Source: Acaryochloris marina MBIC11017 (GTDB lineage: Bacteria > Cyanobacteriota > Cyanobacteriia > Thermosynechococcales > Thermosynechococcaceae). From it: DNA of 32,000 nt. Location of the stretch: positions 5,010,001 to 5,042,000 of the forward strand of contig NC_009925.1 in assembly GCF_000018105.1 (NCBI RefSeq). The letters run 5' to 3'. A program made the position numbers and the translations under genes. Below, piece after piece: positions 13,226 to 31,315 of this stretch (position 1 is the stretch's first letter; every line of letters starts with the position of its first letter). The notes beneath the pieces are model-generated. The model was given only the letters and a program-made list of their open reading frames with translations. It ran no database searches and was not told where the DNA came from.

Positions 13226-14221
13226 ATGGTGCAGATTAGTGATGTCCGGATTTTGATGATTGAAGATGATGAACAGGATGTAGAAATCATCAGAGAATTA
13301 CTAGAGGGCCGTCATAGTTTCCCTGCAGCTCTTGAGCATCGAAGTTCACTTGCAGAAGGGATAGCCCGACTCCATCACGAACCTGCCATTGACCTTGTGC
13401 TTCTTGATCTATCTTTAACGGATGCTAGTAATCTAGAAGCGTTTCAACACATTCAACTTGTGTTCCCAGAAATGCCCCTCATTATTCTTAGTGGAAATTT
13501 AGATCCATCTAGAGCATTATATCTATTGCAGAAAGGTGCACAGGATTGTCTATTTAAAGGGCATTTTGATGCTACTATCTTACGCTGCTCGATTCAATTT
13601 GCTCTAGAAAGGCAGAATCTTTGGTTGGAGTTAAGAGAAAAGAATAAAATTTTAGAGAAACTTTCTAATGAACTCAAAGTAGCTAACCATAAACTCGAAA
13701 AGATTTCAGCTATAGATAGCTTGACCCACATTAATAATCGACGTCGCTTTGATTCGATATTTCTAGCAGAATGGATTCGAATGATGCGAGAAAGGCAGCC
13801 CCTGTCTCTGATTCTCTGCGATGTCGATCACTTTAAGGCCTATAACGATACCTATGGACATCCTGCGGGAGATAAGTGTCTACAGCAGGTTGCTCGAGCC
13901 ATCTCTACGGTTGCCAAGCGTTCTGCAGACTGCGTGGCTCGTTACGGTGGAGAAGAATTTGTCGTAGTATTACCTAACACCGATCAATCCGGAGCGGTTC
14001 ATGTTGCCGAAGCCATTAGAACGGAAATTGAAGCGCTCAGTATTCCCCATTGTTCTTCCACTGTAAGTCAGTATGTCAGCCTTAGCTTAGGGGTAGCCAG
14101 TATCATTCCCAGCAAAGCAATAGCTCCATCTCAGTTGATTGAGCTGACAGACCAAGCTCTATATATGGCTAAAAAGCGAGGTCGCAATCGCACTCACACT
14201 ATGGAACTGATTCAAACGTAA
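13226..14221 (+). CDS. Response-regulator receiver + GGDEF diguanylate cyclase (predicted active)
   Basis: REC motifs are ILMIEDDEQD, DLVLLDLSL and CLFKG. A coiled linker follows. The GGDEF domain has DVDHFKAYNDTYGH, an I-site RSAD five residues before RYGGEEFVVVLP. Confidence 0.9.
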   Translation: MVQISDVRILMIEDDEQDVEIIRELLEGRHSFPAALEHRSSLAEGIARLHHEPAIDLVLLDLSLTDASNLEAFQHIQLVFPEMPLIILSGNLDPSRALYLLQKGAQDCLFKGHFDATILRCSIQFALERQNLWLELREKNKILEKLSNELKVANHKLEKISAIDSLTHINNRRRFDSIFLAEWIRMMRERQPLSLILCDVDHFKAYNDTYGHPAGDKCLQQVARAISTVAKRSADCVARYGGEEFVVVLPNTDQSGAVHVAEAIRTEIEALSIPHCSSTVSQYVSLSLGVASIIPSKAIAPSQLIELTDQALYMAKKRGRNRTHTMELIQT

Positions 14222-14261: not shown

Positions 14262-16076
14262 CTAGGGTGAAAGACATGCATCTAAATTAGTAAGCCATCG
14301 GTGAGGGTTGCTACTGATGTACTGTTCAAGGGGAAGGGACTGTTCAAAATGATTCCCTTGGGCATAGTTAATTCCTAAGTTATCTAGCGAGTTAAGGGTC
14401 ACCTCTGATTTAACTTGCTTGGCAATAATTTTTGAATTCATAACATCAGCCACACGCTTTATTGACCCTACAATTCCATGCAATATGGGATCTGTAGTAA
14501 TGCTTTCAACCAATTCTCCGTTGATTTTTATGTAATCTGCGTTCATCGGTCTAAGCCGTCTAAGCGTCTTGAAATCTACACCAAAATCATCTATGGCAAT
14601 CTGACAGCCTAATGCTTTAAGGGATTGTGCCAGCTGCACTGCTGAGGATAAATCCTTCAAGGCGACTGATTCTGAGATTGCAAAGCAAAGGTGATTCGCT
14701 GGGAAATCGTATAGATTGAGCTGTTGTTGTACCAGCTCAGATAGATTTCCTGCCTTACAGGTTGCTGCTGAGAGTTTAATAAAATAAACAGCGTCAAACT
14801 TTCTATTTGAATAAATCTGTGTATGTTCTAATAACAAGTTCTCAATCACCCACTGGTCAATCTGAGCCATAAAATCATACTGTTCAATCCTGGGCAGAAA
14901 CATTTCGGGTGCATAAGCTCTGCCTGATTGATCACAGAGTCTGAGTAAGATGTCGAGACGCTCTATGCTACTTGTTCTATTTAATGGGTGAATGGGTTGA
15001 ACATAGAGCTGAAACAGATCGTTTTGTAATGCCTGATGTAACTTGCTCACCCAATGTAATGTTTGGCGAGTGTATAACTCCGATTTGATGTCCCGAATGG
15101 TTTGCCAATTGACCTGATGCCTTCCACGCGCTTTAGCGCCTATCAATGCTTGGTGTGCAGCTTCAATCAATAAAGAGGGCGCTTCTGGATGCCTTGGGAT
15201 ATGGCCTGTGACTCCAAAACTGAGGGTGATGGGTTGATGGTATGGGCTAGAAAGATAAGCTATGCCAAGTTTTTGAACTTGAATGCGGATGGCTTCTGCA
15301 ATGAAGGTTGCTCCCAAAATATCAGTATTGGGTAACAAGATTACAAATTGATTTTCACTATATCGAGCGACACAATCTGCTGGACGCTTAATGGTGTGGA
15401 ACATGATCTCAGCGATTTTATGCAACGTATGATCTTCCCAGGTTGTTGAAACTGGATCCATCTCAGTCGCTATCGGGTCTAGCTCGCAAAGAATGAGAGC
15501 TAAGGGTTGTTCTTCTCGCTGTAGTCTTTTCCATTCAGATAGGAAAACGTCATCAAACTGAGTTCGATTATAAAACTTAGTTAGAGAGTCAATTGTTTTA
15601 AGTTTCTTGATTTCAGCCTGAGCTATTTCTAGTTGTTTCGATAATGATTGAAGAGTACTATTCTGAAGCTCTAGCTCTAGTTTTTGTTTCTGGAGTTCTA
15701 AAGCATGTTGAATGGAGTAACATAAAGAGGGGCTATCGAAAGTTCCTTTAATTAAGAAGTCTACTGCTCCCTCATGTAGGGTTTTTTTAATGATTTCTGG
15801 GTTTGAATTGCCACTCAGAATGATCAGAGGCTTTTGTGGAAAAGCTTGATGAATTTGATGGAATGTATCTAAACCTTTGGCATCAGATAAAGTGAGATCT
15901 AGTAGGATTAGATCAATAAAATCGTTGTTTTGTAAAACATGGATGCCTTCCCGTACAGTGTGCTTATGTTGGAGTATTAACGGTAGTTGAGGCATGTTAT
16001 CTAAATAACGGCGAACGATATTGGCATCTTGTTCGTCATCTTCAATGATTAATACATGTATTTTTCTTGATCGCAT
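14262..16076 (-). CDS. REC + degenerate GGDEF + degenerate EAL protein (predicted catalytically inactive c-di-GMP sensor/adaptor)
   Basis: It has the same architecture as the neighbouring gene, but GGEEF is replaced by SENQF and the DxDHFKxYND segment by ELDPIATEMDPV. EAL-site residues are replaced too: EIL to DIL, INLS to IKLS, EISES to AISES, KID to KIN, AEYVES to AKQVKS. The I-site RPAD is retained. Confidence 0.85.
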   Translation of the reverse strand: MRSRKIHVLIIEDDEQDANIVRRYLDNMPQLPLILQHKHTVREGIHVLQNNDFIDLILLDLTLSDAKGLDTFHQIHQAFPQKPLIILSGNSNPEIIKKTLHEGAVDFLIKGTFDSPSLCYSIQHALELQKQKLELELQNSTLQSLSKQLEIAQAEIKKLKTIDSLTKFYNRTQFDDVFLSEWKRLQREEQPLALILCELDPIATEMDPVSTTWEDHTLHKIAEIMFHTIKRPADCVARYSENQFVILLPNTDILGATFIAEAIRIQVQKLGIAYLSSPYHQPITLSFGVTGHIPRHPEAPSLLIEAAHQALIGAKARGRHQVNWQTIRDIKSELYTRQTLHWVSKLHQALQNDLFQLYVQPIHPLNRTSSIERLDILLRLCDQSGRAYAPEMFLPRIEQYDFMAQIDQWVIENLLLEHTQIYSNRKFDAVYFIKLSAATCKAGNLSELVQQQLNLYDFPANHLCFAISESVALKDLSSAVQLAQSLKALGCQIAIDDFGVDFKTLRRLRPMNADYIKINGELVESITTDPILHGIVGSIKRVADVMNSKIIAKQVKSEVTLNSLDNLGINYAQGNHFEQSLPLEQYISSNPHRWLTNLDACLSP

Positions 16077-16194: not shown

Positions 16195-17997
16195 TTAACT
16201 TTCGGCTCCTTGACGAAATGGAATAGATTGATAAGTCACTAAGGTTTCAATCAGGGGTTGGGCTTGGGCATAATAATGACCTTGAGCAAAATCGATCCCA
16301 AAACTGGATATTGTGTCGAGGATAAGCTCAGATTCCACATACTCCGCAATTGTTTGCATACCCATACTTTTTGCAAGTCGATGGATGGCTCCGACAATTT
16401 CTGTAGCCACTGGATCAGAGCCTATATCTTTGACAAAGGAGCCATCAATTTTAAGATAGTCCGCGGGAATAGACTTAAGATGCATGAAAGAAGATAAGCC
16501 ATTACCAAAATCATCTAGGGCAACTTGACAGCCGATTGCGTTTAACTCGTTACTGAGTTTGGCTGCATTGGCTATGTTCTTCAGGGCAACGCTTTCACTA
16601 ATTTCAAAACAAAAGTCTTCTGGATATAAGTTGAAACGAGTGAGCTGTTGTTGCAAAAATTCTATAAGTTGTCCATTATTACAGCTTCTGGCCGATAAAT
16701 TAATAAAAAATTGAGTATTTTGCTCCATAGTTGCTTTAATTTTCTGGAGATCTGCAAATAGATGCTCAATAACCCAATGATCGATGCGATTCATATAGCC
16801 ATTTTGTTCTGCGATGGGTAAGAACAAACCAGGTGTTATGACTGTGCTGGGTTGATCACATAGGCGCAGTAAAATTTCAAAACATTGTTTCTCTCGATTT
16901 TGGCTGAGGGGGTGGATAGGTTGAGCATAGAGCTGGAAATAATCTTTTTCCAAGGCTTGCTCTATCCTCCGGGTCCACAATAATGTTTGGTTGGCTAGTT
17001 GTCTGGGATTTGTAGAATCAGATGTGTTTGCGGTGACCTGGTTTCGACCAAGATCCTTAGCTGTATACAAGGCTTGATCTGCAGATTGAATCAGGCTTGA
17101 AGCGGGAATGTCTTCGTTTGGTATTAGGCTGGCAACTCCCAAACTGAGGCTGATGTGCTTACTCACTGATGAATTGCGGTGGGGAATGTTGAGTTCCTCA
17201 ACTTCTTCCCGAATTGCTTCTGCAACGTGTAATGCCCCAGAAAGATCCGTGTTAGGGAGCAACACTACAAATTCTTCGCCCCCGTAGCGGGCTACACAGT
17301 CTGCGGGACGTTGGGCAATTCTAGCAATGGCTTGAGCAACTTGCTGTAAACACTGGTCTCCTGCTTGATGGCCATAAGCATCGTTATAGGCTTTGAAATG
17401 ATCGACATCGCCCAGAATTACTGATAGCGGTTGCTCTTCACGACATAAACGATGCCACTCTCGTTCAAAGACAGAATCGAACTGACGTCGATTATAAACT
17501 CGTGTTAACCCATCCATGGTAGCCAACCGTTCTAGTTCACGATTGGCAATTTCTAGTTGTTCTGAAAGGGCTAATAATGTTGTGTTTTTATACTGCAGCT
17601 CTAGTTGCTGTTTTTGTCTTTCTAATGCATATTGAATGGTGCGAGATAGAAGAGTGCTGTTAAAGCGTCCTTTGACTAAAAAGTCTTGAGCCCCATCCTG
17701 CATTGCTTCTATAGCTATCGTTTCATCTGTATTCCCAGAAAGGATAACCAGTGGCAGACTGGGGAACATTTCGTGAATCTTATGAAATGTTTCTAGACCC
17801 TGGGTATCTGATAGACAAAGATCCAATAAGACCAAGTCAATGGAGTTAACTTCATGTAGAAAGGTAATTCCTGTGGAGAGTGTCCGACGATGTTTGAGTG
17901 TAATTGCGCTTTTGTTTAAACTCAGCAATTTTCTAACAATTTCTACATCTTGGTCATCATCCTCAATGATCAAAATTTGAGTCCCACCAGCATACAT
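16195..17997 (-). CDS. REC + GGDEF + EAL protein (both catalytic motif sets intact)
   Basis: REC motifs are ILIIEDDDQD and DLVLLDLCL. GGDEF motifs are DVDHFKAYNDAYGH and RPAD-x5-GGEEF. EAL motifs are QPI, FEILLRL, INLS, EISES, LDDFGNG, LKIDGSF, AEYVES and AQGHYY. Confidence 0.9.
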   Translation of the reverse strand: MYAGGTQILIIEDDDQDVEIVRKLLSLNKSAITLKHRRTLSTGITFLHEVNSIDLVLLDLCLSDTQGLETFHKIHEMFPSLPLVILSGNTDETIAIEAMQDGAQDFLVKGRFNSTLLSRTIQYALERQKQQLELQYKNTTLLALSEQLEIANRELERLATMDGLTRVYNRRQFDSVFEREWHRLCREEQPLSVILGDVDHFKAYNDAYGHQAGDQCLQQVAQAIARIAQRPADCVARYGGEEFVVLLPNTDLSGALHVAEAIREEVEELNIPHRNSSVSKHISLSLGVASLIPNEDIPASSLIQSADQALYTAKDLGRNQVTANTSDSTNPRQLANQTLLWTRRIEQALEKDYFQLYAQPIHPLSQNREKQCFEILLRLCDQPSTVITPGLFLPIAEQNGYMNRIDHWVIEHLFADLQKIKATMEQNTQFFINLSARSCNNGQLIEFLQQQLTRFNLYPEDFCFEISESVALKNIANAAKLSNELNAIGCQVALDDFGNGLSSFMHLKSIPADYLKIDGSFVKDIGSDPVATEIVGAIHRLAKSMGMQTIAEYVESELILDTISSFGIDFAQGHYYAQAQPLIETLVTYQSIPFRQGAES

Positions 17998-18606: not shown

Positions 18607-19461
18607 CTACATTCCATTTTGGATGGCCTGCACCAAGCCAATGTAGATGGACTCTAGGAACTCTAGGTTGAGGGTGGCAATGGTATCACTGGGTTTGTGG
18701 TAGTGGGGATTCCTGGAGTCGGCTGTATCCGTCACCATCACTGCAGAATACCCATAATCCCAGAATGAGGCATGATCGCTACGGCGGGTATCGGGAATGG
18801 GAGTGCCGCGTAAGGGGACAGGAAGCCACTCGCAAGGTGCACCATTACGCTTGAAGTGAGTGGACATTTTGAACATGGTGGGAATGGAGCGAAGATTGCC
18901 AAGCAGGGCAATGAAATTGCCAGTGGAAGGATACAAATACTTAAGTCCCGGAGGATATCGCTGAGTATGCTTTCTTGCGTCAATATAGCCCAGCATCTCT
19001 AGGCTGATCATGGTGGTGATGCGGGTGTTGGTTTGCCTGAGTTCTTGGGCATAGGCTTGGCTCCCCAATCGTCCATATTCTTCTAGATCAAAGCCAATTA
19101 TGTGGATGGGATGACGAGCGGGATGGTGATGGAAGTGCTGAGCGAGTTCTAGGAGGACGGCGACTCCGGTGGCATTGTCATCTGCTCCAGGCGATCCGGG
19201 GACGCCATCAAAATGAGCGCCAATCAGTATGGGGGGCAGAGACTGGCGGCCCGGTAAGGACAAGATCAGGTTTTCATGAATACTTTTGGCAACTTTTTTG
19301 AGGGTTCTAAAGGAATGGCGACGCACGGTTCCCCATTGACTGAGTTCTTGGTAGATGTACTCTTTGACAAAAAAATGTCCAGCTGTTGCGAGATAGGGAT
19401 CGCGTTCTCGCGCTAGGTGAGATAAATGTTGTAGGAGCCGTTTTTGTAGGGGACTGCCCAT
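18607..19461 (-). CDS. M28-family zinc aminopeptidase
   Basis: 284-aa ORF with LIGAHFDGVPGSPGADDNATGVAVLLELA, FDLEEYGRLGS and RSDHASFW, the M28 metal-ligand motifs. It starts 15 nt after the stop of the upstream CHAT gene. Confidence 0.85.
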   Translation of the reverse strand: MGSPLQKRLLQHLSHLARERDPYLATAGHFFVKEYIYQELSQWGTVRRHSFRTLKKVAKSIHENLILSLPGRQSLPPILIGAHFDGVPGSPGADDNATGVAVLLELAQHFHHHPARHPIHIIGFDLEEYGRLGSQAYAQELRQTNTRITTMISLEMLGYIDARKHTQRYPPGLKYLYPSTGNFIALLGNLRSIPTMFKMSTHFKRNGAPCEWLPVPLRGTPIPDTRRSDHASFWDYGYSAVMVTDTADSRNPHYHKPSDTIATLNLEFLESIYIGLVQAIQNGM

Positions 19462-19476
19462 AGACCGTCACCTGAT

Positions 19477-20883
19477 TTACCAAGGACTACTGATCATCGT
19501 AAAGCCTGACCAATAGAAGGGGTGGGTGAAATCGATATTGGAAATATCTGAAACTTCGCTGGGTAAAGATAAAGGCGTATTGGAAAGGGTGAGTTGTCCA
19601 TTTTGGGCTTGAATTTGACCTCGAAGCATCCGCAATTGGGCTTGACGCAGGGCTTCTGATTTGGTCTTGTGGCGAGGCAACTGTTGATAAAATTCGCTCA
19701 TAATGGCTAGGGTGCCGACATCACTGACGTACCAGAGGCTTCCTAAAGCTGTTTTAACCCCTGCTTTGAGGGCGATACCAGCAAATCCTAACTCGGCAGT
19801 TTGATCCCCTAGTGCTGTTTTACAGGCACTTAGAACCAAGAGATCGAGGCTGGGCTTGGACCAGTCTAGGGTATTCATTTGGTCTAATCGGAGTTGGGTA
19901 TCTCGGAACTGGATAAATGACTGGTGGGGTTGACCAGGATTAAATTCGGCATGGGTGGCGAGATGAATAATATTGTAGGTTTGCTCGCTTAACTGAGTTT
20001 TGAGGTTCTTGAGGGTGAAATTGCGATTGAGTAAGGCTTGGCCCTGCCACTGGGATTGGTTTGGAAGACGGGCCTGGAGAAAGGTCAAAATAGCTGCAAT
20101 TTCTGTGGGAACGGATGGTAAAGACTCTAGTTGCAAAAATTCTGAGGCTCCACCGGCTAAGATTCTTCCCTGATTACGAGGGGTATATTCGGTTTGAATT
20201 AAGTTGAAGGCCGGAATATTGGTGAGGCTATACTGCTCGACGAGGTATTGTTCGCCATCGTGTAAGGCGGCTAAAGGTAGGCCTCGGAGTCCACTGCCTA
20301 AGCAAAACAATAAGGTATCAATATTGGCTGCTTGAAGATGCTCTTTTTCAAAGGGGGCAATCAGCCACTCATGAAGCTGTTGAGCAGGTGCTAGGTCCCA
20401 CTGACCAGGATCTTTGGCTTGTTCTCGGAAGGTCGCGACGGTTTTCAGAAGTTTTGCGCGTGGGACATCGTAGAGATCTCGAATAATGGGCTGGCCGCCG
20501 GGTAATAGCAAGACTAGATGTAAATGATCTTCACGAGGCATGATCCACAAGACCCCTGGATGGGTTCCAGTGGTTTGACTAATACGGCTCAGGGTTTGGG
20601 CAACTTCTGTCGGATCTTGGGTAACATCTGCGAGATCTTCGCCAAAGTAAGTTTCAAATTCTTTTTCGAAGCTCCGCTCCATGGCCAAGAAATTTTGGGT
20701 GACTTTGGGAGGGATAAATGGGCGGTTATATTCGGCTGAACTTGGCAGAGCATAGGTCCAGATACTGCAGAGGCTAATCAGGCCAATAAGGCGGGGAAGA
20801 TGAACTTGAAATTGGAGGAATCGTTGGTGCGATCGCATCCCCCTTCGTCTGGCTTGATTAAGGGTCGGATTCTGGCCCGGCAT
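19477..20883 (-). CDS. Secreted/periplasmic CHAT-domain (caspase-like) protein
   Basis: 468-aa ORF with a signal-peptide-like N-terminus (LIGLISLCSIWTYALPSSAEY). CHAT motifs are LFCLGSGLRGLPLAALHDG, IIHLATHAEF, LLVLSACKTALGD, SLWYVSD and HPFYWSGFTMISSPW. An alternative start is Met16 at 20838. Confidence 0.85.
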   Translation of the reverse strand: MPGQNPTLNQARRRGMRSHQRFLQFQVHLPRLIGLISLCSIWTYALPSSAEYNRPFIPPKVTQNFLAMERSFEKEFETYFGEDLADVTQDPTEVAQTLSRISQTTGTHPGVLWIMPREDHLHLVLLLPGGQPIIRDLYDVPRAKLLKTVATFREQAKDPGQWDLAPAQQLHEWLIAPFEKEHLQAANIDTLLFCLGSGLRGLPLAALHDGEQYLVEQYSLTNIPAFNLIQTEYTPRNQGRILAGGASEFLQLESLPSVPTEIAAILTFLQARLPNQSQWQGQALLNRNFTLKNLKTQLSEQTYNIIHLATHAEFNPGQPHQSFIQFRDTQLRLDQMNTLDWSKPSLDLLVLSACKTALGDQTAELGFAGIALKAGVKTALGSLWYVSDVGTLAIMSEFYQQLPRHKTKSEALRQAQLRMLRGQIQAQNGQLTLSNTPLSLPSEVSDISNIDFTHPFYWSGFTMISSPW

Positions 20884-21054: not shown

Positions 21055-21855
21055 TTAGTGTTCCGTTTGCAGAGCGTTAGGCTGTTGCTGTTGGAGTAAA
21101 TCGATTAGCTTGTCGATGCCCTTCTTCATGTTGCGAGTAACAGTGACGGAGCTGACACCGATGCGCTTGGCCACTTCTTGGCGAGAGAGCTGCTGGAAAA
21201 AGACGGACTCAATCATAATTCGGGTCCGATCTTCGAGCTGGTTTAAGGCTTGCTGAAGTTCGATGCGATCTTCTTGGTTGGCCTGCAGGATTTGGCTATG
21301 AACATCCATCAGGGTGTCACCTAGGGTCATAGCGGAGTCAGACTGAGAGTGACCAGAGGAGACCCGAGCGTTGAGGCTAAGGGGAACGCGATTGGTGGTG
21401 GCGAGTTTAACCGAACGCCATTCTTGCATGGAGAGGCTAAGGGCATCAGCGATTTCCTGATCGTTGGGCTGACGACCCAATTCCATGGTAAGGGCTTGTC
21501 TGGCTTTGGCAGCATCCCGGCTGAGCTGTTGCCAGCGGCGGGGGATGCGAACGGTGTTAGCACGGTCGCGAAGGAAGTGGAGGATTTCGCCGCGAATGTA
21601 AGGCACTGCGAAGGAACTGAAGGCATATCCTTGGGAGGGGTCAAAGCGCTCGATGGCAGTAATCAAACCTAGAAATCCGCATTGCTCTAGATCTTCGTAG
21701 GGCTCAGCGCACTGGTGGGTCAGACGGTGAGCGACCTTGCGAACGAGACCCATATTCAATCGCACGAGGCGGTTTCTGAGCTGAACGGAAGGCTTTTGGC
21801 GATAAGCGACCAGAAGTTCCATGGTTTGCGATTGAAGAGAAGTTTGATAAGCCAT
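21055..21855 (-). CDS. Group-3 sigma-70 family sigma factor (SigF-type)
   Basis: 266-aa ORF without region 1.1. Region 2 is DLEQCGFLGLITAIERFDPSQGYAFSSFAVPYIRGEILHFLRD. Region 3 is VRIPRRWQQL. The region 4 HTH is LSRQEVAKRIGVSSVTVTRNMKKGIDKL. Confidence 0.85.
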   Translation of the reverse strand: MAYQTSLQSQTMELLVAYRQKPSVQLRNRLVRLNMGLVRKVAHRLTHQCAEPYEDLEQCGFLGLITAIERFDPSQGYAFSSFAVPYIRGEILHFLRDRANTVRIPRRWQQLSRDAAKARQALTMELGRQPNDQEIADALSLSMQEWRSVKLATTNRVPLSLNARVSSGHSQSDSAMTLGDTLMDVHSQILQANQEDRIELQQALNQLEDRTRIMIESVFFQQLSRQEVAKRIGVSSVTVTRNMKKGIDKLIDLLQQQQPNALQTEH

Positions 21856-23572: not shown

Positions 23573-24820
23573 CTAATCAACACGTATCGTGAGTTTACTC
23601 AGCTCAGAACTGGGGACAACGGCCTGAACTGTGAAATTAAACCGTCCAAGGCGGGCACCTTGTAAATTTGCTTGCAGTGGATCAACGTTAATGGAGATAT
23701 CACTGTCATAGACAATTGCAGTACAGGATTGTCCCACTAAATCATTGAGTTGAGCATTGCCTAAGGGCTGAATGTTCAGGACTTCATCGAGATTGGTTTG
23801 AGGCAGATTCCCAGCTAAAAAATCATTGAGGGATAAGGGGCCGTTTTGACCATTCAAGGTCTGGGGCAGAGAAAAGACACCTTCATCGCCTGTTTGCCCA
23901 GTGGGGATAGTCACGATGTCTCCGGTATAGCTGGTATTCCAGAGAAAAGTAGGATTCCCTAGCTGGGTCGGGTTATTTTTATTAATCAAGGCATTCACGC
24001 TAATGCCTTTGTTTTGGGCAGCGTCTTGAATGGTGGGGATATCGCTGTCTATGCTGTCTTCATCCATGACTAGAAGACATGCAGTTGAATTGGTTGTCCC
24101 CAATGAAGTTCCAGAAGTCTGGGCAAATTCTAGGGCACGGATAGCGGTTGTGGAGCTATATCGGTAAGTATCCGTTTGCGCCAAGACTTTGTTAATTCTG
24201 CCGGTTTGATAGACTTTGGCGATGTCGCCCGTGGCATTAACGCAGACATAGAATCCAGGGGTGCCCGAACCGACCCAGTTGGTTTCACAGGTGGGCAGGG
24301 AGCCTTCACTTTCAATCAGATCAATGAGGGGCTCATGGGGCCATTGGGTTGGGGCATCAGGATTGATATAGGTCCCCTGATCGTCATAGGCAGGCCCCCA
24401 CCGATAGATTGCTTTAGGACCCTGCCAAATACCGTTAGGGGGTGTAGCGAGATAGTAGACGATGGGGATGAGGTTGGTCTGAGCCATTCTTAGCATCAGG
24501 ACGGGCTGAACTTGGGATATGTCTGGGCTGATACCTGACAAGAATTCGATGGGTTGTTCAGAACTGATAGAGGCATCCTGGACAATTGTGGCGGCTGTTC
24601 TGATTTCCTGGGCTATAAAGTCTCCAGCTCGATTCAGTTCTACGCGACGTTCGTTTTGAGCGTTGGTGGTGGTGCTGGTGGTGATGATGGAGACCAAACC
24701 ATAGCCACTTAGGGTGATGAGAAAAAAGCTGATGACACCCCCCACCAACAACTCCGTTAGGGTAAATCCTGCTATCGATGGACGGTCGATTTGCCTTTTA
24801 TGCACGGGCTTGATAGCCAT
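23573..24820 (-). CDS. Prepilin-type N-terminal cleavage/methylation domain protein (large minor-pilin/pseudopilin-like)
   Basis: 415-aa ORF with a class III signal: a basic leader (KPVHKRQIDRPSIA), then G/FTLTELLVGGVISFFLITLSGYGLV. The C-terminal region of about 350 aa has no motif I recognise. Confidence 0.8.
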   Translation of the reverse strand: MAIKPVHKRQIDRPSIAGFTLTELLVGGVISFFLITLSGYGLVSIITTSTTTNAQNERRVELNRAGDFIAQEIRTAATIVQDASISSEQPIEFLSGISPDISQVQPVLMLRMAQTNLIPIVYYLATPPNGIWQGPKAIYRWGPAYDDQGTYINPDAPTQWPHEPLIDLIESEGSLPTCETNWVGSGTPGFYVCVNATGDIAKVYQTGRINKVLAQTDTYRYSSTTAIRALEFAQTSGTSLGTTNSTACLLVMDEDSIDSDIPTIQDAAQNKGISVNALINKNNPTQLGNPTFLWNTSYTGDIVTIPTGQTGDEGVFSLPQTLNGQNGPLSLNDFLAGNLPQTNLDEVLNIQPLGNAQLNDLVGQSCTAIVYDSDISINVDPLQANLQGARLGRFNFTVQAVVPSSELSKLTIRVD

Positions 24821-25284: not shown

Positions 25285-27474
25285 GTGAGAAAAATCCTGA
25301 TTTTGGCAGCCAATCCTAAGAACACCAATCAGCTCAGATTGGATGAAGAGGTGCGGGAAATTCAGGAAGGGCTGCAGCGATCGCGCAGTCGAGACCAGTT
25401 TGAAATTGTGTCTCGGTGGGCGGTTCGTCCCAGCGATTTACGACGGGCGCTGTTGGATTATGAACCGCAAATAGTCCATTTCTGTGGCCATGGGGCTGGG
25501 GCTGAGGGATTAGCCCTGGAGAACAATGCGGGGCAGATAAAGCTGGTTACTGGGAAGGCGCTGGGCGGACTGTTTAAGCTGGTGCAAGCAAATGTGGAAT
25601 GTGTCTTGCTTAATGCCTGCTATTCAGAGGCTCAATCGAAGGCGATCCACAAATATATTAGCTATGTGATTGGTATGAGTAATGCCATCGGCGACCGGGC
25701 GGCCATTGAGTTTGCTGTGGGGTTTTATGATGGCTTGGGCGCAGACCGCTCCTACGAAGATGCCTTTGAATTTGGGTTGTCGGCCATTGCCCTGGAAGGG
25801 ATTGACGAGACGGCTACGCCGAAGTTGAAATCGCCAGGACCAGGCTCCTCCCCAAACTCTGTTCAACGGATTAACCCGTCATCTGCGCAAAAGCCTGAAT
25901 CTGAGAATAAGACTGCCAACAACCCTTTGTCGGGGGAGGGAAAAGCCCGGATTTTTATCAGCTATAAACGGGATGCTGTACCGGATGAACAGTTGGCTTT
26001 GGCGATTTATCAGCATTTGGGCCAAAGCCATGAAGTGTTTATCGATCAGAGCATGGCGGTGGGCACAAAGTGGGCCGAGAAGATTGAGCGGGAACTCCGA
26101 CAGTCGGATTTTTTGATTACGTTATTGTCGGCTTCGGCGGTGGGAAGTGAGATGGTTCAGGGGGAGGTGGAAACGGCGAATCGGCTGGGAAGTGAATTGG
26201 GTAAGCCTGCGATTCTGCCTGTTCGGGTCAATTATCGGGAGCCGTTTACCTATCCCCTCAGTGCTTACCTAAATCCAATTAACTGGGCGTTTTGGGAGCA
26301 GTCGGAAGATACGCCCCAATTATTGGCAGAACTGGAGCGGGCCATTGCTGGCGAATCCTTGTCGATTGCTTCGGATAGGGCCAAACAAGATCTGGTCCAA
26401 CTGCCGACGGCAGATAAGGCTGAGATTCCGCAGCCCCTGCCTTCGGCCCAACCCCCAACGCTGGAAATGCCGGAGGGGTCGATGGACCCGGAGTCGCAGT
26501 TTTATGTGGAGCGCCAGGGGGACCAGATTGCCTTGGCAGCAATTCAGCGGCAGGGAGTGACAGTGACGATTAAGGGACCGCGCCAGATGGGCAAGAGTTC
26601 CTTGCTGCTAAAGACCGTCGATCAGGCGATTCAGGCAGATAAGCGAGTGGCTTATATTGATTTTCAGTTGTTTGATGATGCGGCTTTGGGGGATGCGGAT
26701 CGGTTTTATCAGCAGTTTTGCCTGACGATTACAGAGCAGTTGGAACTGCCAAACCGAATTGAGGACTTTTGGCAGGATGAGTTGGGGAATAACCAGCGCT
26801 GTACTCGGTATATGCAGACTTATGTGCTGCGGGAGCTAAAGCATCCGTTTGTGCTGGCGATGGATGAGGTGGATCGGATTTTTGATCGCAAGTTTCGGTC
26901 GGATTTCTTTGCCATGTTGCGGAATTGGCACAACAATCGGGGGTTACCTTTGCCCGCGATGAAGGTGTGGAAGCAGTTTGATCTGGTGCTGGTGACAGCG
27001 ACGGAGCCCTATCACCTGATCGCAGATTTGCACCAGTCGCCCTTCAACGTGGGGGAAGTGATTTCTCTGAAAGACTTTACGGCGGCGCAGGTGGCGGATT
27101 TGAACCAACGGCATGGTTCGCCTTTAACCGCCGAACAGGAGCGGGCGTTATTTGCTCTGCTGAATGGCCATCCCTATCTAATTCGCAAGGCGCTTTATCT
27201 GGTAGCCAGTGGTCAAAAGTCGATGGATCAGGTGTTGGCGAAGGCAGATCGGGATGATGGACCCTTTGGTGATCATCTGCGGTATCACTTATTTCGAATA
27301 TATGATCGGCCCGAACTGGTGCAGGGGATGTTGGGGGCGGTTCAGAAGAATCGATGCGAGGATGAGCGGATTGTACGGCTGCTCTGTGCGGCGGGCCTAA
27401 TTCGCCAGGAGGGGAAAGCAGAGTTGCCCCGCTGTCAGCTTTATGGGGACTACTTTAAGGCACATCTGGAATAG
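25285..27474 (+). CDS. Three-module protein: compact CHAT/caspase-like domain + TIR domain + AAA-like (AAA_35-type) P-loop ATPase
   Basis: The start is GTG 25285; the frame opens after TGA 25252-25254 and has no earlier start codon, and GGAGG lies at 25267-25271. aa 1-170 carry KILILAANP, LRLDEEVREIQ, IVHFCGHG (His69, nt 25489-25491) and VLLNACYS (Cys112, nt 25618-25620). aa 221-300 carry RIFISYKRD...VFIDQ...KWAEKI...FLITLLSASAVGSEMVQGEVE. aa 400-729 carry FYVERQGD, Walker A GPRQMGKSS (Lys437, nt 26593-26595), Walker B FVLAMDEVD, SPFNVGE and NGHPYL. Confidence 0.85.
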   Translation: MRKILILAANPKNTNQLRLDEEVREIQEGLQRSRSRDQFEIVSRWAVRPSDLRRALLDYEPQIVHFCGHGAGAEGLALENNAGQIKLVTGKALGGLFKLVQANVECVLLNACYSEAQSKAIHKYISYVIGMSNAIGDRAAIEFAVGFYDGLGADRSYEDAFEFGLSAIALEGIDETATPKLKSPGPGSSPNSVQRINPSSAQKPESENKTANNPLSGEGKARIFISYKRDAVPDEQLALAIYQHLGQSHEVFIDQSMAVGTKWAEKIERELRQSDFLITLLSASAVGSEMVQGEVETANRLGSELGKPAILPVRVNYREPFTYPLSAYLNPINWAFWEQSEDTPQLLAELERAIAGESLSIASDRAKQDLVQLPTADKAEIPQPLPSAQPPTLEMPEGSMDPESQFYVERQGDQIALAAIQRQGVTVTIKGPRQMGKSSLLLKTVDQAIQADKRVAYIDFQLFDDAALGDADRFYQQFCLTITEQLELPNRIEDFWQDELGNNQRCTRYMQTYVLRELKHPFVLAMDEVDRIFDRKFRSDFFAMLRNWHNNRGLPLPAMKVWKQFDLVLVTATEPYHLIADLHQSPFNVGEVISLKDFTAAQVADLNQRHGSPLTAEQERALFALLNGHPYLIRKALYLVASGQKSMDQVLAKADRDDGPFGDHLRYHLFRIYDRPELVQGMLGAVQKNRCEDERIVRLLCAAGLIRQEGKAELPRCQLYGDYFKAHLE

Positions 27475-27487
27475 GTAGAGGGAGGGT

Positions 27488-30400
27488 ATGGGGACTGAGA
27501 TTTATACCGTTGGCGGTACCGTGCAGGCGAATGCCCAGGGGCTGTATATTCCTCGGCAGGCGGACCAAGACCTGTTGCAGCTTTGCCGAGACTCGACTTT
27601 TGCCTATGTGTTGACGCCACGGCAGATGGGCAAGTCCAGTTTGATGATGCGGACGGCAGAAACGCTCTATGAGGAAGGTATTGCTGCTGTAATTATTGAC
27701 CTGACTACAATTGGGACTCAGTTGACGGCGGACCAATGGTATTTGGGATTGTTAACTGAAATTGCTGATCAGTTGGTGCTGTCGGTGAATGTCTATCAGT
27801 GGTGGCAAGCGCGTCAACATTTGGGAGGGACCCAGCGGCTGAGTCATTTTTTTGAGCAAGTGGTGATCCCAGAAACGACTGACCCGGTGGTGATCTTTAT
27901 TGATGAGATTGATACCACGCTGACTTTGGGTTTTGCGGATGATTTCTATGCAGCAATCCGGGGATTATATGTGGCTAGGGCGAAACAGCCAGTGTTACAT
28001 CGACTGTCCTTTGTGTTGATTGGGGTGGCAACGCCGAGTGATTTGATTAAAGACGCCAAGCGGACGCCTTTTAATGTGGGAGAACGGGTGGAGCTAACTG
28101 ATTTTACCCAGGCTGAAGTGTTGCCAATGGCGACAGGTTTGGGATTAGAAAGTCAGCAGGCAGAGCAAGTATTGGGGTGGGTGTTGAAGTGGACGGGGGG
28201 ACATCCTTACCTCACCCAACGGCTGTGTAAGGCGCTGGTAGATGAGGGGAAGCAGGATTGGCAAGAGTCGGATGTGGATCGGATAGTTCGCCGCACATTT
28301 CTGGCGGAGGAAAGCGAAAAAGACAATAATCTGCAGTTTGTGCGGGATATGTTGACGAAGCGGGCACCTGAAGATTTAGAAGAAGAGGTCCTCAAGTCTT
28401 ATCGGGTAAAAGTTCTCAAGACCTATCGGGAGGTGCAAAGTGATAAGTCTCCTGTTAAAGATGAAGAGCAATCTCTGGTGATATCTCATCTGAAACTCGC
28501 TGGGGTGGTGAGAAAAGAGGGTGAACTACTTAAAAATCGTAATCTTATTTATATAACTGTTTTTGATAGGAGGTGGATTCAGCAACATTTACCAGAGAGT
28601 TTGTGGCAAAAACTCAAGCCAGCGATGCCATTGATTGCTTTTTTGTCAACTGTATCAGTTGCAGTGTCAGGCTTAGCAGTTTATGCGATTAATCAAAGGA
28701 ATGAAGCTAGATTGGCAAAGAGTGAAGCTCAAAAATCTGAAGTAAGAGCTGAACAAAAAGCTAATGATGAAGAATATGCCAAAAAACAAACTGAAATTGC
28801 CCTTGAACAATCTCGCCGGAATGAAAAAGCAGCTAAAAACGCAGCGCGCGAAGCTCAACGGCAAAAGAAATTTGCTCAAAAGTCAGCGTTACTTGCAAAG
28901 CGTCGATTGCAGCAAGTGAATTCAGCACGCAAAGCGGAAGTTATAGCGAGAGAAAAAGCTCAAAAAGCCCAAAACTTAACTGAACGTCTACTAACCGAAG
29001 CTGAATTCCAGAAAAGCTTTGCAATCACACAAAGTGAAATAGCCAATCAAGAAAGAGCTGAAGCTGAAAAAGCAACAAAAATAGCAAAATACCAGACTGG
29101 CTTGGCCGAAATGAGGCAGCATAATGCTGAACTTTTAGCAGCAGCACTCAATGCTGAGAAACTTTTTGGAAGTGGGTTGGAGATTGCTTCACTAGTTGAA
29201 AGCCTCAAAGTAGCCCAAAAACTTAAGGATTTAATTGAGCTAAAACAAGTTCAACCTAGGGTGAGAATTCAGTCTATTGCGATCCTTAAAAATATTGTAT
29301 ATGGAATTAAAGAGCAGAATCAATTAACCGGTCATAGAGTCGGGGTCCGGTCCGTAACATTCAGCCCCGATGGCCAGACCCTCGCGTCCGGGAGTGCTGA
29401 CGGCACCGTGAAGCTGTGGGATAGACAGGGCAAGGAACTGGCTTCTTTCACAGGCACGGGATATGGCACTAGCATCAATTCCGTGGTCTTCAGTCCCGAT
29501 GGTCAGACCCTTGCTTCCGGGGGGTGGTTCGGCACCGTAAAGTTGTGGGACAGACAGGGCAAGGAACTGGCCTCCTTCAAGGGACATGGCAATTCGGTCA
29601 TGTCCGTGGTCTTCAGCCCCGATGGTCAGACCCTCGCATCTGGGAGTAGAGACGGCACCGTAAAGCTGTGGAATAGAAAGGGCAAGGAATTGGCCTCCTT
29701 CACCGGACACTTCACTGGACGTTCCTGGTTGCATAGTAATGTGGTCAATTCTGTGGTCTTCAGCCCCGATGGCCAGACCCTCGCGTCTGGGAGCTCTGAC
29801 GGCACCGTGAAGCTGTGGGACAGACAGGGCAAGGAACTGGCCTCCTTCACAAAACGTGGCGCTAGCATCAATTCCGTGGTCTTCAGCCCCGATGGTCAGA
29901 CCCTTGCCTCCGGCAGTACTGACGGCACCGTGAAGCTGTGGAACAGACAGGGCAAGGAACTGGCTTCCTTCACAGGACATGGTGATGCGGTCATGTCCGT
30001 GGTCTTCAGCCCTGACGGCCAGACCCTTGCCTCCGGGAGTAGAGACGACACCGTGAAACTGTGGGACAGACAGGGCAAGGAACTAGTCTCCTTCACTGAA
30101 CGTGGTGATTCGGTCATGTCTGTGGCCTTTAACCCCGATGGTCAGACCCTCGCTTCCGGGGGGATTAGAGGTGTTGTGAAGCTGTGGGATAGACAGGGCA
30201 AGGAACTGGCCTCCTTCAAGGGACATGGCAATTCGGTCAGCTTTGTGGCCTTCAGCTCCGACGGTCAGACCCTCGCCTCCAGGAGCACTGACGGCATCGT
30301 GAAGCTGTGGGGCAGACAGGGCAAGGAACTGGCTTCCTTCACGGGCGGTAGGGCCAAATCCGTGGCCTTCAGTCCCGATGGCCAGACCCTTGCCTTCGAG

Positions 30401-31315
30401 GATTCTGAGGGCACCATGAAGTTGTGGGACAGACAGGGCAAGGAATTGGCCTCCTTCAACGGACATGGCAATTTGGGCATGTCTGTGGTCTTCAGCCCCG
30501 ACGGTCAGACCCTCGCCTCCGGGAGTCATTATGGCTCCGTGAAGCTGTGGGATAGACAGGGTAAGGAACTGGTTTCCTTCAAGGGACATGGCAATTCGGT
30601 CAATTCTGTGGCCTTCAGCCCCGATGGTCAGACCCTCGCCTCCGGGAGTGTTGACGGCACCGTAAAGCTGTGGGGCAGACAGGGCAAGGAACTGGCCTCC
30701 TTCAACGGACATGGCAATTCGGTCAATTCTGTGGTCTTCAGTCCCGATGGTCAGACCCTCGCCTCCGGGAGTAGAGACGGCACCGTAAAGCTTTGGAATA
30801 GACAGGGCAAGGAATTGGCCTCCTTCAAGGGACATGGCGATTCGGTCATGTCCGTGGCCTTCAACCCCGATGGTCAGACCCTCGTCTCCGGGAGTACTGA
30901 CGGCACTGTGAAGCTGTGGGATAGACAGGGCAAGGAATTGGCCTCTTTCACTGGACATAGCTCTTCGGTTAATTCCGTGGCCTTCAGCTCCGACGGTCAG
31001 ACCCTCGTTTCTGGGAGTGATGACCGCACCGTGAAGCTATGGAATATGGACCTCGAACACTTAAGAGAATTGGGCTGCCAATGGTTAGGCAACTATTTTG
31101 CCAACAATCCGACTGGTCAAAAGCAGAGAGAAGTCTGCAATGGCGTTACAGGATCATCTCAACTTCAAGATAGCCAAGCAAAATTTTTCTCGGTTCATCA
31201 AATTCCTTTCCAGCTAGCAATGCAATTGCAGAACTTACCCATGCATATAACTGAGAGCTACAGAAACTTAGAAACTTCGTTGAAATTACTTGAATTTCCT
31301 CACTCCAAATCTTGA
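27488..31315 (+). CDS. AAA-like (AAA_35-type) P-loop ATPase + hydrophobic helix + coiled coil + 14 WD40 repeats
   Basis: ATG 27488 lies 13 nt after the stop of the upstream gene and is preceded by GAGGGAGGG. aa 1-370 carry YTVGGTV, YIPRQADQDL, TPRQMGKSS, VVIFIDEID, TPFNVGE and GGHPYL. aa 378-401 are PAMPLIAFLSTVSVAVSGLAVYAI. aa 402-560 are a K/E/A/Q-rich heptad-like region. aa 614-1186 are 14 WD40 units (GHxxxVxSVxFSPDGQTLASGSxDGTVKLWD). The C-terminal LGCQWLGNYFANNP...C motif is typical of cyanobacterial WD40 proteins. Confidence 0.9.
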   Translation: MGTEIYTVGGTVQANAQGLYIPRQADQDLLQLCRDSTFAYVLTPRQMGKSSLMMRTAETLYEEGIAAVIIDLTTIGTQLTADQWYLGLLTEIADQLVLSVNVYQWWQARQHLGGTQRLSHFFEQVVIPETTDPVVIFIDEIDTTLTLGFADDFYAAIRGLYVARAKQPVLHRLSFVLIGVATPSDLIKDAKRTPFNVGERVELTDFTQAEVLPMATGLGLESQQAEQVLGWVLKWTGGHPYLTQRLCKALVDEGKQDWQESDVDRIVRRTFLAEESEKDNNLQFVRDMLTKRAPEDLEEEVLKSYRVKVLKTYREVQSDKSPVKDEEQSLVISHLKLAGVVRKEGELLKNRNLIYITVFDRRWIQQHLPESLWQKLKPAMPLIAFLSTVSVAVSGLAVYAINQRNEARLAKSEAQKSEVRAEQKANDEEYAKKQTEIALEQSRRNEKAAKNAAREAQRQKKFAQKSALLAKRRLQQVNSARKAEVIAREKAQKAQNLTERLLTEAEFQKSFAITQSEIANQERAEAEKATKIAKYQTGLAEMRQHNAELLAAALNAEKLFGSGLEIASLVESLKVAQKLKDLIELKQVQPRVRIQSIAILKNIVYGIKEQNQLTGHRVGVRSVTFSPDGQTLASGSADGTVKLWDRQGKELASFTGTGYGTSINSVVFSPDGQTLASGGWFGTVKLWDRQGKELASFKGHGNSVMSVVFSPDGQTLASGSRDGTVKLWNRKGKELASFTGHFTGRSWLHSNVVNSVVFSPDGQTLASGSSDGTVKLWDRQGKELASFTKRGASINSVVFSPDGQTLASGSTDGTVKLWNRQGKELASFTGHGDAVMSVVFSPDGQTLASGSRDDTVKLWDRQGKELVSFTERGDSVMSVAFNPDGQTLASGGIRGVVKLWDRQGKELASFKGHGNSVSFVAFSSDGQTLASRSTDGIVKLWGRQGKELASFTGGRAKSVAFSPDGQTLAFEDSEGTMKLWDRQGKELASFNGHGNLGMSVVFSPDGQTLASGSHYGSVKLWDRQGKELVSFKGHGNSVNSVAFSPDGQTLASGSVDGTVKLWGRQGKELASFNGHGNSVNSVVFSPDGQTLASGSRDGTVKLWNRQGKELASFKGHGDSVMSVAFNPDGQTLVSGSTDGTVKLWDRQGKELASFTGHSSSVNSVAFSSDGQTLVSGSDDRTVKLWNMDLEHLRELGCQWLGNYFANNPTGQKQREVCNGVTGSSQLQDSQAKFFSVHQIPFQLAMQLQNLPMHITESYRNLETSLKLLEFPHSKS
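29327..31045 (+). repeat. Intragenic tandem DNA repeat, 14 units with a basic period of 123 bp (the WD40 array)
   Basis: The anchor agaCagggcaagg (or agaAagggcaagg) recurs at 29423, 29552, 29675, 29822, 29945, 30068, 30191, 30314, 30431, 30554, 30677, 30800 and 30923. Spacings are 123 bp, except 129, 147 and 117. Long identical nucleotide runs persist through synonymous sites. Confidence 0.95.

Follow-up and report, generated by a model that had tools for sequence, protein, structure and literature searches.

Two adjacent genes of Acaryochloris marina MBIC11017 raise the question of whether the sensor and the executor of an NLR-like switch can reside on two different proteins that both contain a version of one ATPase. 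The genes, here called A and B, lie within a 32,000-nt stretch of contig NC_009925.1 (positions 5,010,001–5,042,000 of the forward strand; assembly GCF_000018105.1), which we refer to as the window and whose numbering is used throughout. An earlier note, made without database searches, had proposed that A carries the effectors and B the sensor. Our analysis establishes that the A–B pair is real, widespread and uncharacterised; what sets it apart is an obligate pair of NTPases and, probably, a sensor located outside the cytoplasm. We are confident in the division of labor between a sensor and an executor. With moderate confidence we read the pair as an NLR-like switch divided over two proteins that uses AAA_35, a branch of the STAND/Orc-Cdc6-like NTPases, B being a transmembrane (TM) receptor and A a cytosolic executor. 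The pair is probably a cell-death or immune switch; a role against phages specifically would be less assured than the transmembrane-receptor reading.

Gene A occupies positions 25285–27474 of the plus strand (GTG start, 729 aa, TAG stop at 27472–27474), and gene B follows at 27488–31315 (plus strand, ATG start, 1275 aa), exactly the coordinates first noted for these co-directional open reading frames (ORFs). The 13-nt spacer between them (27475–27487, GTAGAGGGAGGGT) includes a purine-rich GAGGGAGGG, which is likely the ribosome-binding site of gene B. A scan for promoters and terminators returned counts equal to shuffled expectation. A single operon is the best explanation for the two genes.

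Is this adjacency anything more than an accident of one genome? The earlier note had asked for its recurrence elsewhere, and it recurs at every locus in our sample that allowed a test. A B-type AAA_35 gene lies directly downstream of A in three of three distant A-homolog loci (Nostoc, Scytonema, Leptothoe), and an A-type gene lies directly upstream of B in four of four B-homolog loci, including Blastocatellia (Acidobacteria). A scan with the B-type ATPase profile, taking one genome per species, confirmed at least 523 loci, and the best 80 of these were analyzed for pairing with our own ORF calls and hidden Markov models of the modules. By record title, about 71 of the 80 are cyanobacterial, six belong to Blastocatellia, one to Chloroflexia and two are unclassified. 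A same-strand A-type gene was found directly upstream of B at 76 loci: 38 encode CHAT-TIR-AAA_35 proteins, 29 TIR-AAA_35 proteins, eight an A that is frameshifted or truncated by the contig, and one a B::A fusion (L079). Two of the remaining four loci start at a contig end and allow no test, and two have a divergent TIR-AAA_35 neighbor, confirmed by Pfam. All 78 testable loci are thus paired, 76 on the same strand and two divergently, and such obligate pairing defines the family. The stop of A and the start of B overlap by exactly 8 nt in 57 of the 76 same-strand pairs, which indicates that A and B are translationally coupled; the 13-nt spacer in the window is a minority variant.

Further evidence that A and B belong together comes from covalent fusions, which occur in both orders. 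In a Blastocatellia metagenome-assembled genome (L079, 1754–10029), a TIR-AAA_35 gene is followed by a gene for an 891-aa protein that combines B-type AAA_35, TIR and A-type AAA_35, and then by an AAA_35-TM-WD40 gene; both junctions of this three-gene version are 8-nt overlaps. Protein P0326 is a single chain of the form Trypsin-TIR-AAA_35(A)-AAA_35(B), P0350 reads AAA_35-AAA_35-WD40, and P0368 and P0376 have two AAA_35 modules each. In addition, the distance matrices of the A and B ATPases across 63 loci correlate with r = 0.84; shared species phylogeny contributes to this value, which was not attained in any of 999 Mantel permutations. The fusions, the coupled translation and this correlation all lend support to the idea that A and B may hetero-oligomerize. 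The presence of a full NTPase module in A as well as in B would suit the view that A and B are independent AAA_35 proteins that merely happen to be neighbors; the 78 of 78 paired loci, the 8-nt overlaps, the fusions and the mirror-tree correlation effectively refute it. No conserved third gene was present across the 80 loci, where only lineage-specific synteny was seen, and when the ATPase trees were cut into two clusters, the CHAT-TIR and TIR-only classes stayed mixed. On a megaplasmid of Ca. Chlorohelix allophototropha (L093, 552–7251; four matching places in the record) the order appears reversed, a 1490-aa 'AAA-like domain' protein preceding a 738-aa protein with a C-terminal A-type module.

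We next consider the ATPase modules themselves, which the earlier note had described as paralogous and as belonging to neither the NACHT nor the NB-ARC type. The two are indeed paralogs (31% identity over 245 aa, E = 4e-31). The A-type module spans aa 395–729 of gene A (26467–27471, plus strand), where Pfam AAA_35 (PF14516) matches aa 395–725 over the full length of the model (381.8 bits, E = 2.9e-114; gathering score 27 bits). The B-type module spans aa 1–372 of gene B (27488–28603, plus strand), comprises nucleotide-binding, helical and winged-helix-like parts, and matches AAA_35 at aa 17–253 (121.2 bits, E = 5.3e-35, model positions 10–246). It has 2057 homologs. All ATPase motifs quoted in the earlier note were found in both proteins. 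Walker A reads G431-PRQMG-K437-S in A (K437, 26593–26595) and T43-PRQMG-K49-S in B (K49, 27632–27634), Walker B contains D527/E528 (26863–26868) and D139/E140 (27902–27907), respectively, and the GHPYL motif of A (628–632) has its counterpart in GGHPYL of B (237–242). Both Walker motifs are intact and invariant in A-type and B-type homologs.

According to AlphaFold2 (AF2) models, both modules end in a helical bundle and a β-hairpin (residues 1–381 of gene B were modeled with pLDDT 80.6 and pTM 0.79). Foldseek placed ORC2 (1w5t), SSO1545 (2fna) and PAB2304 (2qen) at the top for the B-type module, and 2qen (TMt 0.60) and 2fna (0.55) as the closest folds for the A-type module; MalT, CED-4 and Avs3/4 rank below Orc/Cdc6 and the archaeal ATPases. 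This ranking above classical STANDs would put AAA_35 at the boundary between Orc/Cdc6 and STAND. SSO1545, PAB2304 and Orc1/Cdc6 are the best structural matches to both modules (TM 0.48–0.60) and share their three-part layout; in contrast to A and B, they are free of effector and sensor domains and either act in replication initiation or have no assigned function, and sequence identity is only 12–16%. Neither the NACHT (PF05729) nor the NB-ARC (PF00931) profile matched gene A at E ≤ 0.01 or the first 600 aa of gene B at E ≤ 0.1, so on this point the first assessment holds. As for STAND features, the Walker motifs and the tripartite layout are present, and effector and sensor are brought together only across the A–B pair; relatives have single-chain forms (P0326, P0350). 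We also considered whether AAA_35 might be nSTAND1, whose architectures in Kaur 2021 (PMC8195603) include 'nSTAND1+TM+BetaPropeller'. No nSTAND family appeared among the listed Pfam matches of A or of B aa 1–600, which is only suggestive, as the presence of the nSTAND1 model in the Pfam copy is unconfirmed. AAA_35 may be the same as the 'MNS / Npun2340-2341' family named in Leipe 2004 and by Aravind's group, which takes its name from two adjacent Nostoc punctiforme genes.

One residue distinguishes the two types. The position before the SPFNVGE/TPFNVGE motif is invariant within each, being Gln in A (Q584, 27034–27036) and Arg in B (R192, 28061–28063). The difference may mark asymmetric roles in a mixed oligomer. 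It is also a hint in favor of a guard or antitoxin relation, in which the AAA_35 module of B would cap A and hold it inactive until a signal, or the loss of B, frees A to homo-oligomerize and kill. Strict pairing and translational coupling fit the stoichiometry of toxin and antidote, and A has everything that a self-activating TIR-STAND needs except the sensor. Yet B is second in the operon, while antidotes usually come first; Walker A and B are intact in both NTPases; and fusions of the A::B and B::A kinds are easier to square with a working hetero-assembly than with the release of an inhibitor. We therefore regard the guard arrangement as quite improbable and retain the sensor–executor pair.

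What would the executor execute? Gene A was predicted to combine CHAT, TIR and ATPase domains, and significant profile matches to CHAT, TIR_2 and AAA_35 bear this out. More than 120 homologs (57–100% identity) have the same three domains. In the AF2 model of full-length gene A (pLDDT 82.1), the domains are joined by linkers at residues 186–218 and 375–389 with pLDDT below 50, and the top Foldseek match of the whole protein is the plant TIR-NLR RPP1 (7dfv/7crc). The caspase-like CHAT protease domain covers aa 1–182 (25285–25830, plus strand); Pfam CHAT matches aa 9–158 (8.1e-9) and the PADLOC 'chat' model scores 7.5e-20. Its catalytic dyad, H69 in GHG (25489–25491) and C112 in NACYS (25618–25620), is invariant in 36–41 homologs, and GHG and NAC align with HFIGHG and LNAC of SAVED-CHAT 8tl0 (4e-14; 26–28% identity between the CHAT domains, Foldseek root-mean-square deviation ~3 Å).

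The TIR domain follows at aa ~221–355 (25945–26349, plus strand), with a TIR_2 match at aa 223–340 (2e-18) and Foldseek matches to the TIR domains of SPARTA and SARM1. Its motif S288-E-M-V-x-x-E294 is invariant, making E294 (26164–26166) a candidate for the residue at the catalytic-Glu position. The motif aligns with SDWCWDE of the CRISPR-associated Cat1 TIR, in a weak PDB match (E 0.16) that weighs against this part of our reading; the Pfam assignment of the domain is strong. Thus, catalytic residues of both CHAT and TIR are present and aligned with solved structures, and the residues singled out at the outset for mutation (C112 and K437 in A, K49 in B) are all invariant in homologs.

If A is the executor, B should look like a sensor. 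Beyond its ATPase, gene B encodes a hydrophobic TM-like helix (aa ~378–401, 28619–28690), a charged, helical, coiled-coil-like stalk (aa 405–600, 28700–29287), 14 WD40 repeats that form the putative ligand sensor (aa ~612–1195, 29321–31072) and an 80-aa C-terminal tail for which Pfam lists no domain (31073–31312), all on the plus strand. The profiles and the 14 repeat anchors agree with the architecture first proposed. Pfam reports WD40 in 13 stretches (1.3e-161), 14 anchors were counted, and Tandem Repeats Finder detects a 123-nt unit in 13.5 copies; the 14 repeats probably make two 7-bladed propellers. Identity among the repeats averages 71% with a maximum of 93%, and their variation clusters in the D–A loop (columns 2, 5, 6 and 9) and just ahead of the B–C turn Asp (column 25), which we take to be the top-face positions that contact ligands. 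The WD40 sensors of fungal NLRs likewise have internally conserved repeats with variable contact sites. Such a pattern would suit a diversifying ligand sensor. On the minus strand opposite the array, two long ORFs (29324–29980, 218 aa; 30083–30958, 291 aa) have a repeat pattern of their own; we rejected them as genes, considering them shadows of the 123-nt tandem repeat. In other genomes, B genes often end at a contig edge or contain runs of N within the WD40 array (e.g. L016, L018, L027–L029, L033, L022 and L035), and public annotations of B are therefore often 'partial', with too low a number of repeats.

Where the sensor sits depends on the helix, which the earlier note had recorded simply as a helix. 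It is present, and it is more than that: of 178 B sequences, 160 have an uncharged hydrophobic segment directly after the ATPase, with medians of 2.14 for the score and 23 aa for the length. In gene B itself the best 19-mer reaches 2.03 on the Kyte–Doolittle scale. Among WD40-type B proteins the flanking net charge is +2.0 on the N-terminal side and −0.29 on the C-terminal side, the former exceeding the latter in 64 proteins and the reverse holding in two; since the sequences are related, a sign test on these counts overstates significance. The C-terminal domains of other B-type proteins point in the same direction. WD40 is found in the majority, and the alternatives comprise CHASE2, a lambda-lysozyme-like domain, PEGA/CarboxypepD_reg, pentapeptide repeats, TPR-like repeats, DUF4062 and a coiled coil alone. 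Six loci (L066 from Nostoc cf. edaphicum, L025, L050, L069, L074 and L088) encode AAA_35-TM-CHASE2-3xTM proteins, in which CHASE2 (1.9e-52 and 1e-63) precedes three more TM segments. In L066 these are followed by a C-terminal, cytoplasmic Ser/Thr kinase, and such a topology is consistent only when the first helix spans the membrane. Four of the others (L025, L050, L074, L088) have a short C-terminal tail with the motif KISKSL..KLE, which may be ribbon-helix-helix-like.

A homolog of lambda lysozyme (1am7/3d3d, 3e-23) ends the sensor arm in Leptolyngbya sp. Heron Island J (L083) and in P0207. The catalytic Glu of lambda lysozyme is E19 in the AWSEGT motif; because the corresponding position is Leu or Ile, the domain looks like an inactive, peptidoglycan-binding sensor. 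In further B homologs, PEGA/CarboxypepD_reg domains follow the helix. Given these domains, the charge bias and simple hydropathy, the stalk and the 14 WD40 blades most likely lie outside the cytoplasm, and we somewhat favor the reading of gene B as a single-pass receptor. The sense of NLR as an intracellular receptor, implied by the earlier note, is accordingly the part of that proposal which likely fails for gene B, owing to the conserved TM-like helix with its positive-inside bias and the probably extracytoplasmic sensor.

The contrary view keeps the WD40 array in the cytoplasm, where it would recognize a phage or invader protein in the manner of Apaf-1-like and Avs proteins; the helix would act as a peripheral or in-plane tether or as an oligomerization element, and A would be recruited through the ATPase. 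The pairing evidence fits this view equally well, gene B has no N-terminal signal peptide, and its WD40 region contains no cysteines. Other observations also count against an external sensor: the stalk is strongly charged (61% A/E/K/Q/R, one Pro; no Pfam match in aa 405–600), exporting ~870 residues from an internal signal-anchor would be demanding, and the WD40 sensors of known bacterial STANDs, the Apaf-1-like proteins, are cytoplasmic (PMC13581612). It is hard, however, for a cytoplasmic location to account for an uncharged 23-residue helix with Kyte–Doolittle values of ~2.0–2.9 and such wide conservation, for the N-in/C-out bias, or for CHASE2, lambda-lysozyme-type and PEGA/CarboxypepD_reg domains, all of extracytoplasmic types, at the same position in homologs. 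We judge the fully cytoplasmic version unlikely.

In TIR-NLR resistosomes, SARM1, SPARTA, apoptosomes and SAVED-CHAT filaments, induced proximity is an established way of switching on TIR and caspase-like domains, and we carry this principle over to the A–B pair by analogy. The mechanism that we infer covers physical co-assembly, the direction of signaling, the location of the WD40 array, the enzymatic outputs and a role in immunity or programmed death. Under this model, B would be the receptor, with a cytoplasmic AAA_35 module, one membrane-spanning helix, a stalk of ~190 aa and a periplasmic or lumenal WD40 array, and A would be a cytosolic executor with a CHAT protease, a TIR domain of the NADase type and the paralogous AAA_35. 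Binding of a ligand to the WD40 top face would be signaled through the stalk and the helix to the NTPase of B, where nucleotide would be exchanged. The B NTPase would then nucleate a mixed A/B oligomer of AAA_35 modules, and the TIR and CHAT domains of A would become clustered. Induced proximity would let TIR cleave NAD+ and CHAT cleave proteins, leading to growth arrest or cell death. A bolder formulation, which we offer tentatively, is a Toll-like receptor/NLR hybrid, present at no fewer than 523 loci in species-representative genomes of cyanobacteria, Acidobacteria and Chloroflexota, whose transmembrane AAA_35 receptor would survey the periplasm or envelope and nucleate a 'resistosome' with the TIR and caspase-like executor.

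Whether the output is immune is best judged from the effector heads, and here the expectation that effector domains would be swapped among relatives proved right: TIR alone, CHAT-TIR, Pkinase, trypsin and others are found. We searched the A ATPase module against 1.84 billion representative proteins. At E ≤ 1e-3 this gave 8,926 clusters (50% identity), of which 2,049 also passed E ≤ 1e-30; both paralog types are included in these numbers. Nearly always the module is C-terminal, and N-terminal extensions range from 0 to ~1170 aa. Heads were tallied with Pfam on a 72-member subset of 150 representatives. TIR_2 is present in 39 members, including one with three separate TIR stretches, Pkinase in 10, Trypsin_2 in three and EAD1 in three; EAD4, EAD7 and TCAD9 occur as well, as do CHAT, Peptidase_C14, PNP_UDP_1, Metallophos, Guanylate_cyc, SEFIR, HTH_31 and Response_reg. 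Locus L090 again shows the paired layout, with Pkinase-AAA_35 ahead of AAA_35-WD40, and at L091 a Trypco1 gene precedes the trypsin-headed fusion. EAD, TCAD and Trypco belong to the adaptor vocabulary of the conflict systems that Kaur et al. have compiled (PMC7159879, PMC8195603), and their occurrence indicates that the AAA_35 family plugs into the conflict-system network.

These same data have to be weighed against a non-immune switch, that is, a receptor-ATPase for envelope, peptidoglycan or environmental cues that would control developmental or stress-related cell death, or regulation by TIR-made nucleotides. Several findings favor it and so tell against the immune interpretation. Kinase, cyclase, REC and HTH heads (Pkinase, Guanylate_cyc, Response_reg, HTH_31) are ordinary signaling outputs, and sensors of the CHASE2 and inactive-lysozyme kinds would fit cues from small molecules or peptidoglycan. 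Nor does the window resemble a defence island: it holds housekeeping, c-di-GMP and peptidase genes, and no defence genes adjoin the pair within it. Nineteen Nostoc TIR-only loci (L018, L027, L029 and 16 more) share their flanks (LPG-synthase TM-like, DUF6658 and two unknown ORFs), which recur at a metagenomic locus (L009), and eight loci from Tolypothrix, Scytonema, Brasilonema and relatives share a flanking FtsW/RodA gene. These flanking genes are of housekeeping type, and their sharing in both groups points to vertical, chromosomal inheritance. ATPase identity between cyanobacterial orders is 57–67%, far more than is usual for a gene caught in an arms race. Finally, none of the phage records carries the pair.

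On the other side of the balance stand heads that are typical of conflict systems (Kaur et al. 2020/2021), namely TIR, CHAT/caspase, trypsin with Trypco1, PNP, Metallophos, EAD1/4/7 and TCAD9, together with WD40 repeats that are conserved internally and variable at the ligand face. Several genomes have two or three copies of the pair. The AAA_35 module occurs in several phyla, which suggests horizontal spread. A 103-kb plasmid of Abditibacteriota (pIAD-21; L092, 5458–9844) carries a 60% identical copy whose genes encode 513 and 950 aa, overlap by 8 nt and lie between two XerC tyrosine recombinase genes, a setting that hints at occasional mobility; further copies reside on Ca. Chlorohelix megaplasmids. 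Taken together, a purely non-immune role seems doubtful. The conflict-type effectors named in the earlier note are borne out; a role in defence is only putative, and the pair lies in ordinary chromosomal synteny.

The earlier note had also held that no characterised system has this composition. PADLOC-DB v2.0.0 assigned no system to the pair, as expected, and has no model for either NTPase: gene A matched the generic chat, SAVED_CHAT and TIR models and, in its P-loop only, PDC-S01 (E ~1e-4), and the sole match of gene B was the WD40-containing HEAT-ARM_XIII model. Literature searches returned no paper naming AAA_35/PF14516 or describing the A–B pair. The statement needs a qualification, since a conceptual precedent for a two-STAND operon exists. 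This is nSTAND2 (Kaur, Iyer, Burroughs, Aravind, eLife 2021, PMC8195603), described there as a mobile bacterial two-gene operon with variable effectors and a predicted toroidal hetero-multimer. Like A–B, it consists of two adjacent genes, each encoding a STAND NTPase core. Unlike in A–B, where both NTPases are intact, one nSTAND2 module has eroded NTP-binding motifs; its effectors are GT4 or HEPN rather than TIR/CHAT, it is found mostly in Proteobacteria, and the supplement rows consulted in PMC8195603 give no TM-sensor arm. Identity of the A–B pair with nSTAND2 was rejected: hhalign of the B-type profile against nSTAND2 WP_094198012.1 gave a probability of 0.12% (E 0.47), and this protein has no AAA_35 match in Pfam.

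Single-chain receptors offer a second comparison. Avs1-7, bNACHT and the Apaf-1-like caspase-STAND-WD40 proteins of cyanobacteria (PMC13581612) combine an N-terminal effector, a STAND-class NTPase and a C-terminal TPR/WD40 sensor and are activated by ligand-induced oligomerization. In the A–B pair, by contrast, effector and sensor are on two polypeptides, each with an NTPase, the NTPase is AAA_35 rather than NACHT, NB-ARC or Avs-type, and a TM-like helix is conserved in the sensor arm of B; among the PADLOC models, none for Avs or NLR matched A or B. Plant paired NLRs (RRS1/RPS4, RGA5/RGA4) divide labor between sensor and executor within a hetero-complex, as we propose for A–B; this is an analogy and not orthology. 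The RPP1 resistosome, whose TIR is activated by NOD-driven oligomerization, is the top structural match of gene A already mentioned. Plant pairs differ in using NB-ARC, in being usually divergently transcribed and cytosolic or nuclear, and in that both members normally have LRRs. Toll-like and PknB-type receptors resemble the predicted topology of B in having an extracytoplasmic sensor, a single TM helix and a cytoplasmic death or signaling module, whereas in A–B a nucleotide-driven AAA_35 switch would come between the sensor and a TIR that belongs to a separate protein. A CHASE2 domain with TM helices is also described on caspase-containing conflict proteins (EACC2-caspase-CHASE2; PMC8195603).

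With respect to the individual effectors, SAVED-CHAT (8tl0), a protease associated with type III CRISPR/CBASS, has a homologous CHAT with the same His/Cys dyad and is activated by filament oligomerization. There, however, activation comes from the cyclic-oligonucleotide-binding SAVED domain and not from an NTPase, and there is neither a TIR nor a partner sensor gene. Gene A has no match to a SAVED or TPR-CHAT/Csx29 region; its PADLOC SAVED_CHAT match is limited to the CHAT part (model positions 289–455). The TIR of gene A differs from those of Thoeris in falling below the cut-offs of Pfam ThsB_TIR (17 vs 21.2 bits) and NCBIfam ThcB4 (31.5 vs 220 bits), and the window lacks a ThsA-like gene.

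Pattern recognition in plants and animals and, as recently recognized, in bacteria relies mainly on STAND/NLR proteins. To our knowledge, all characterised bacterial members are single cytoplasmic polypeptides. An obligate sensor–executor pair that works through paralogous NTPases would be a simple bacterial model for plant paired NLRs. If the TM sensor arm is real, NLR-type switches can report events outside the cytoplasm, and cell-death systems for envelope surveillance would constitute a previously unrecognized class. The proposal also provides a first functional hypothesis for the AAA_35 family with its 8,926 representative clusters, and it links TIR and caspase-like effectors in cyanobacteria, in which programmed cell death has been observed and its mechanism is poorly explained.

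The remainder of the window contains GH113-like, pilin-like, sigma-70 factor, peptidase and Hsp33 genes as well as three REC-GGDEF(-EAL) genes. Directly upstream of gene A, a 415-aa ORF (23573–24820, minus strand) has a prepilin-like N-terminus (FTLTELLVG) and no Pfam match. A TPR-repeat protein (1387–2805, plus strand, 472 aa) is directly followed by a CHAT protein (2929–4080, plus strand, 383 aa, CHAT 1.3e-58), and this pairing of TPR and caspase-like proteins recalls other conflict or death systems. Another CHAT protein (19477–20883, minus strand, 468 aa, 7.5e-64) adjoins an M28 peptidase and is located downstream of a sigma-70-type factor (18607–19461 and 21055–21855, both minus strand), so that, together with gene A, the 32-kb window encodes three CHAT proteases. 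The c-di-GMP cluster is composed of a REC-GGDEF gene (13226–14221, plus strand) and two REC-GGDEF-EAL genes (14262–16076 and 16195–17997, both minus strand).

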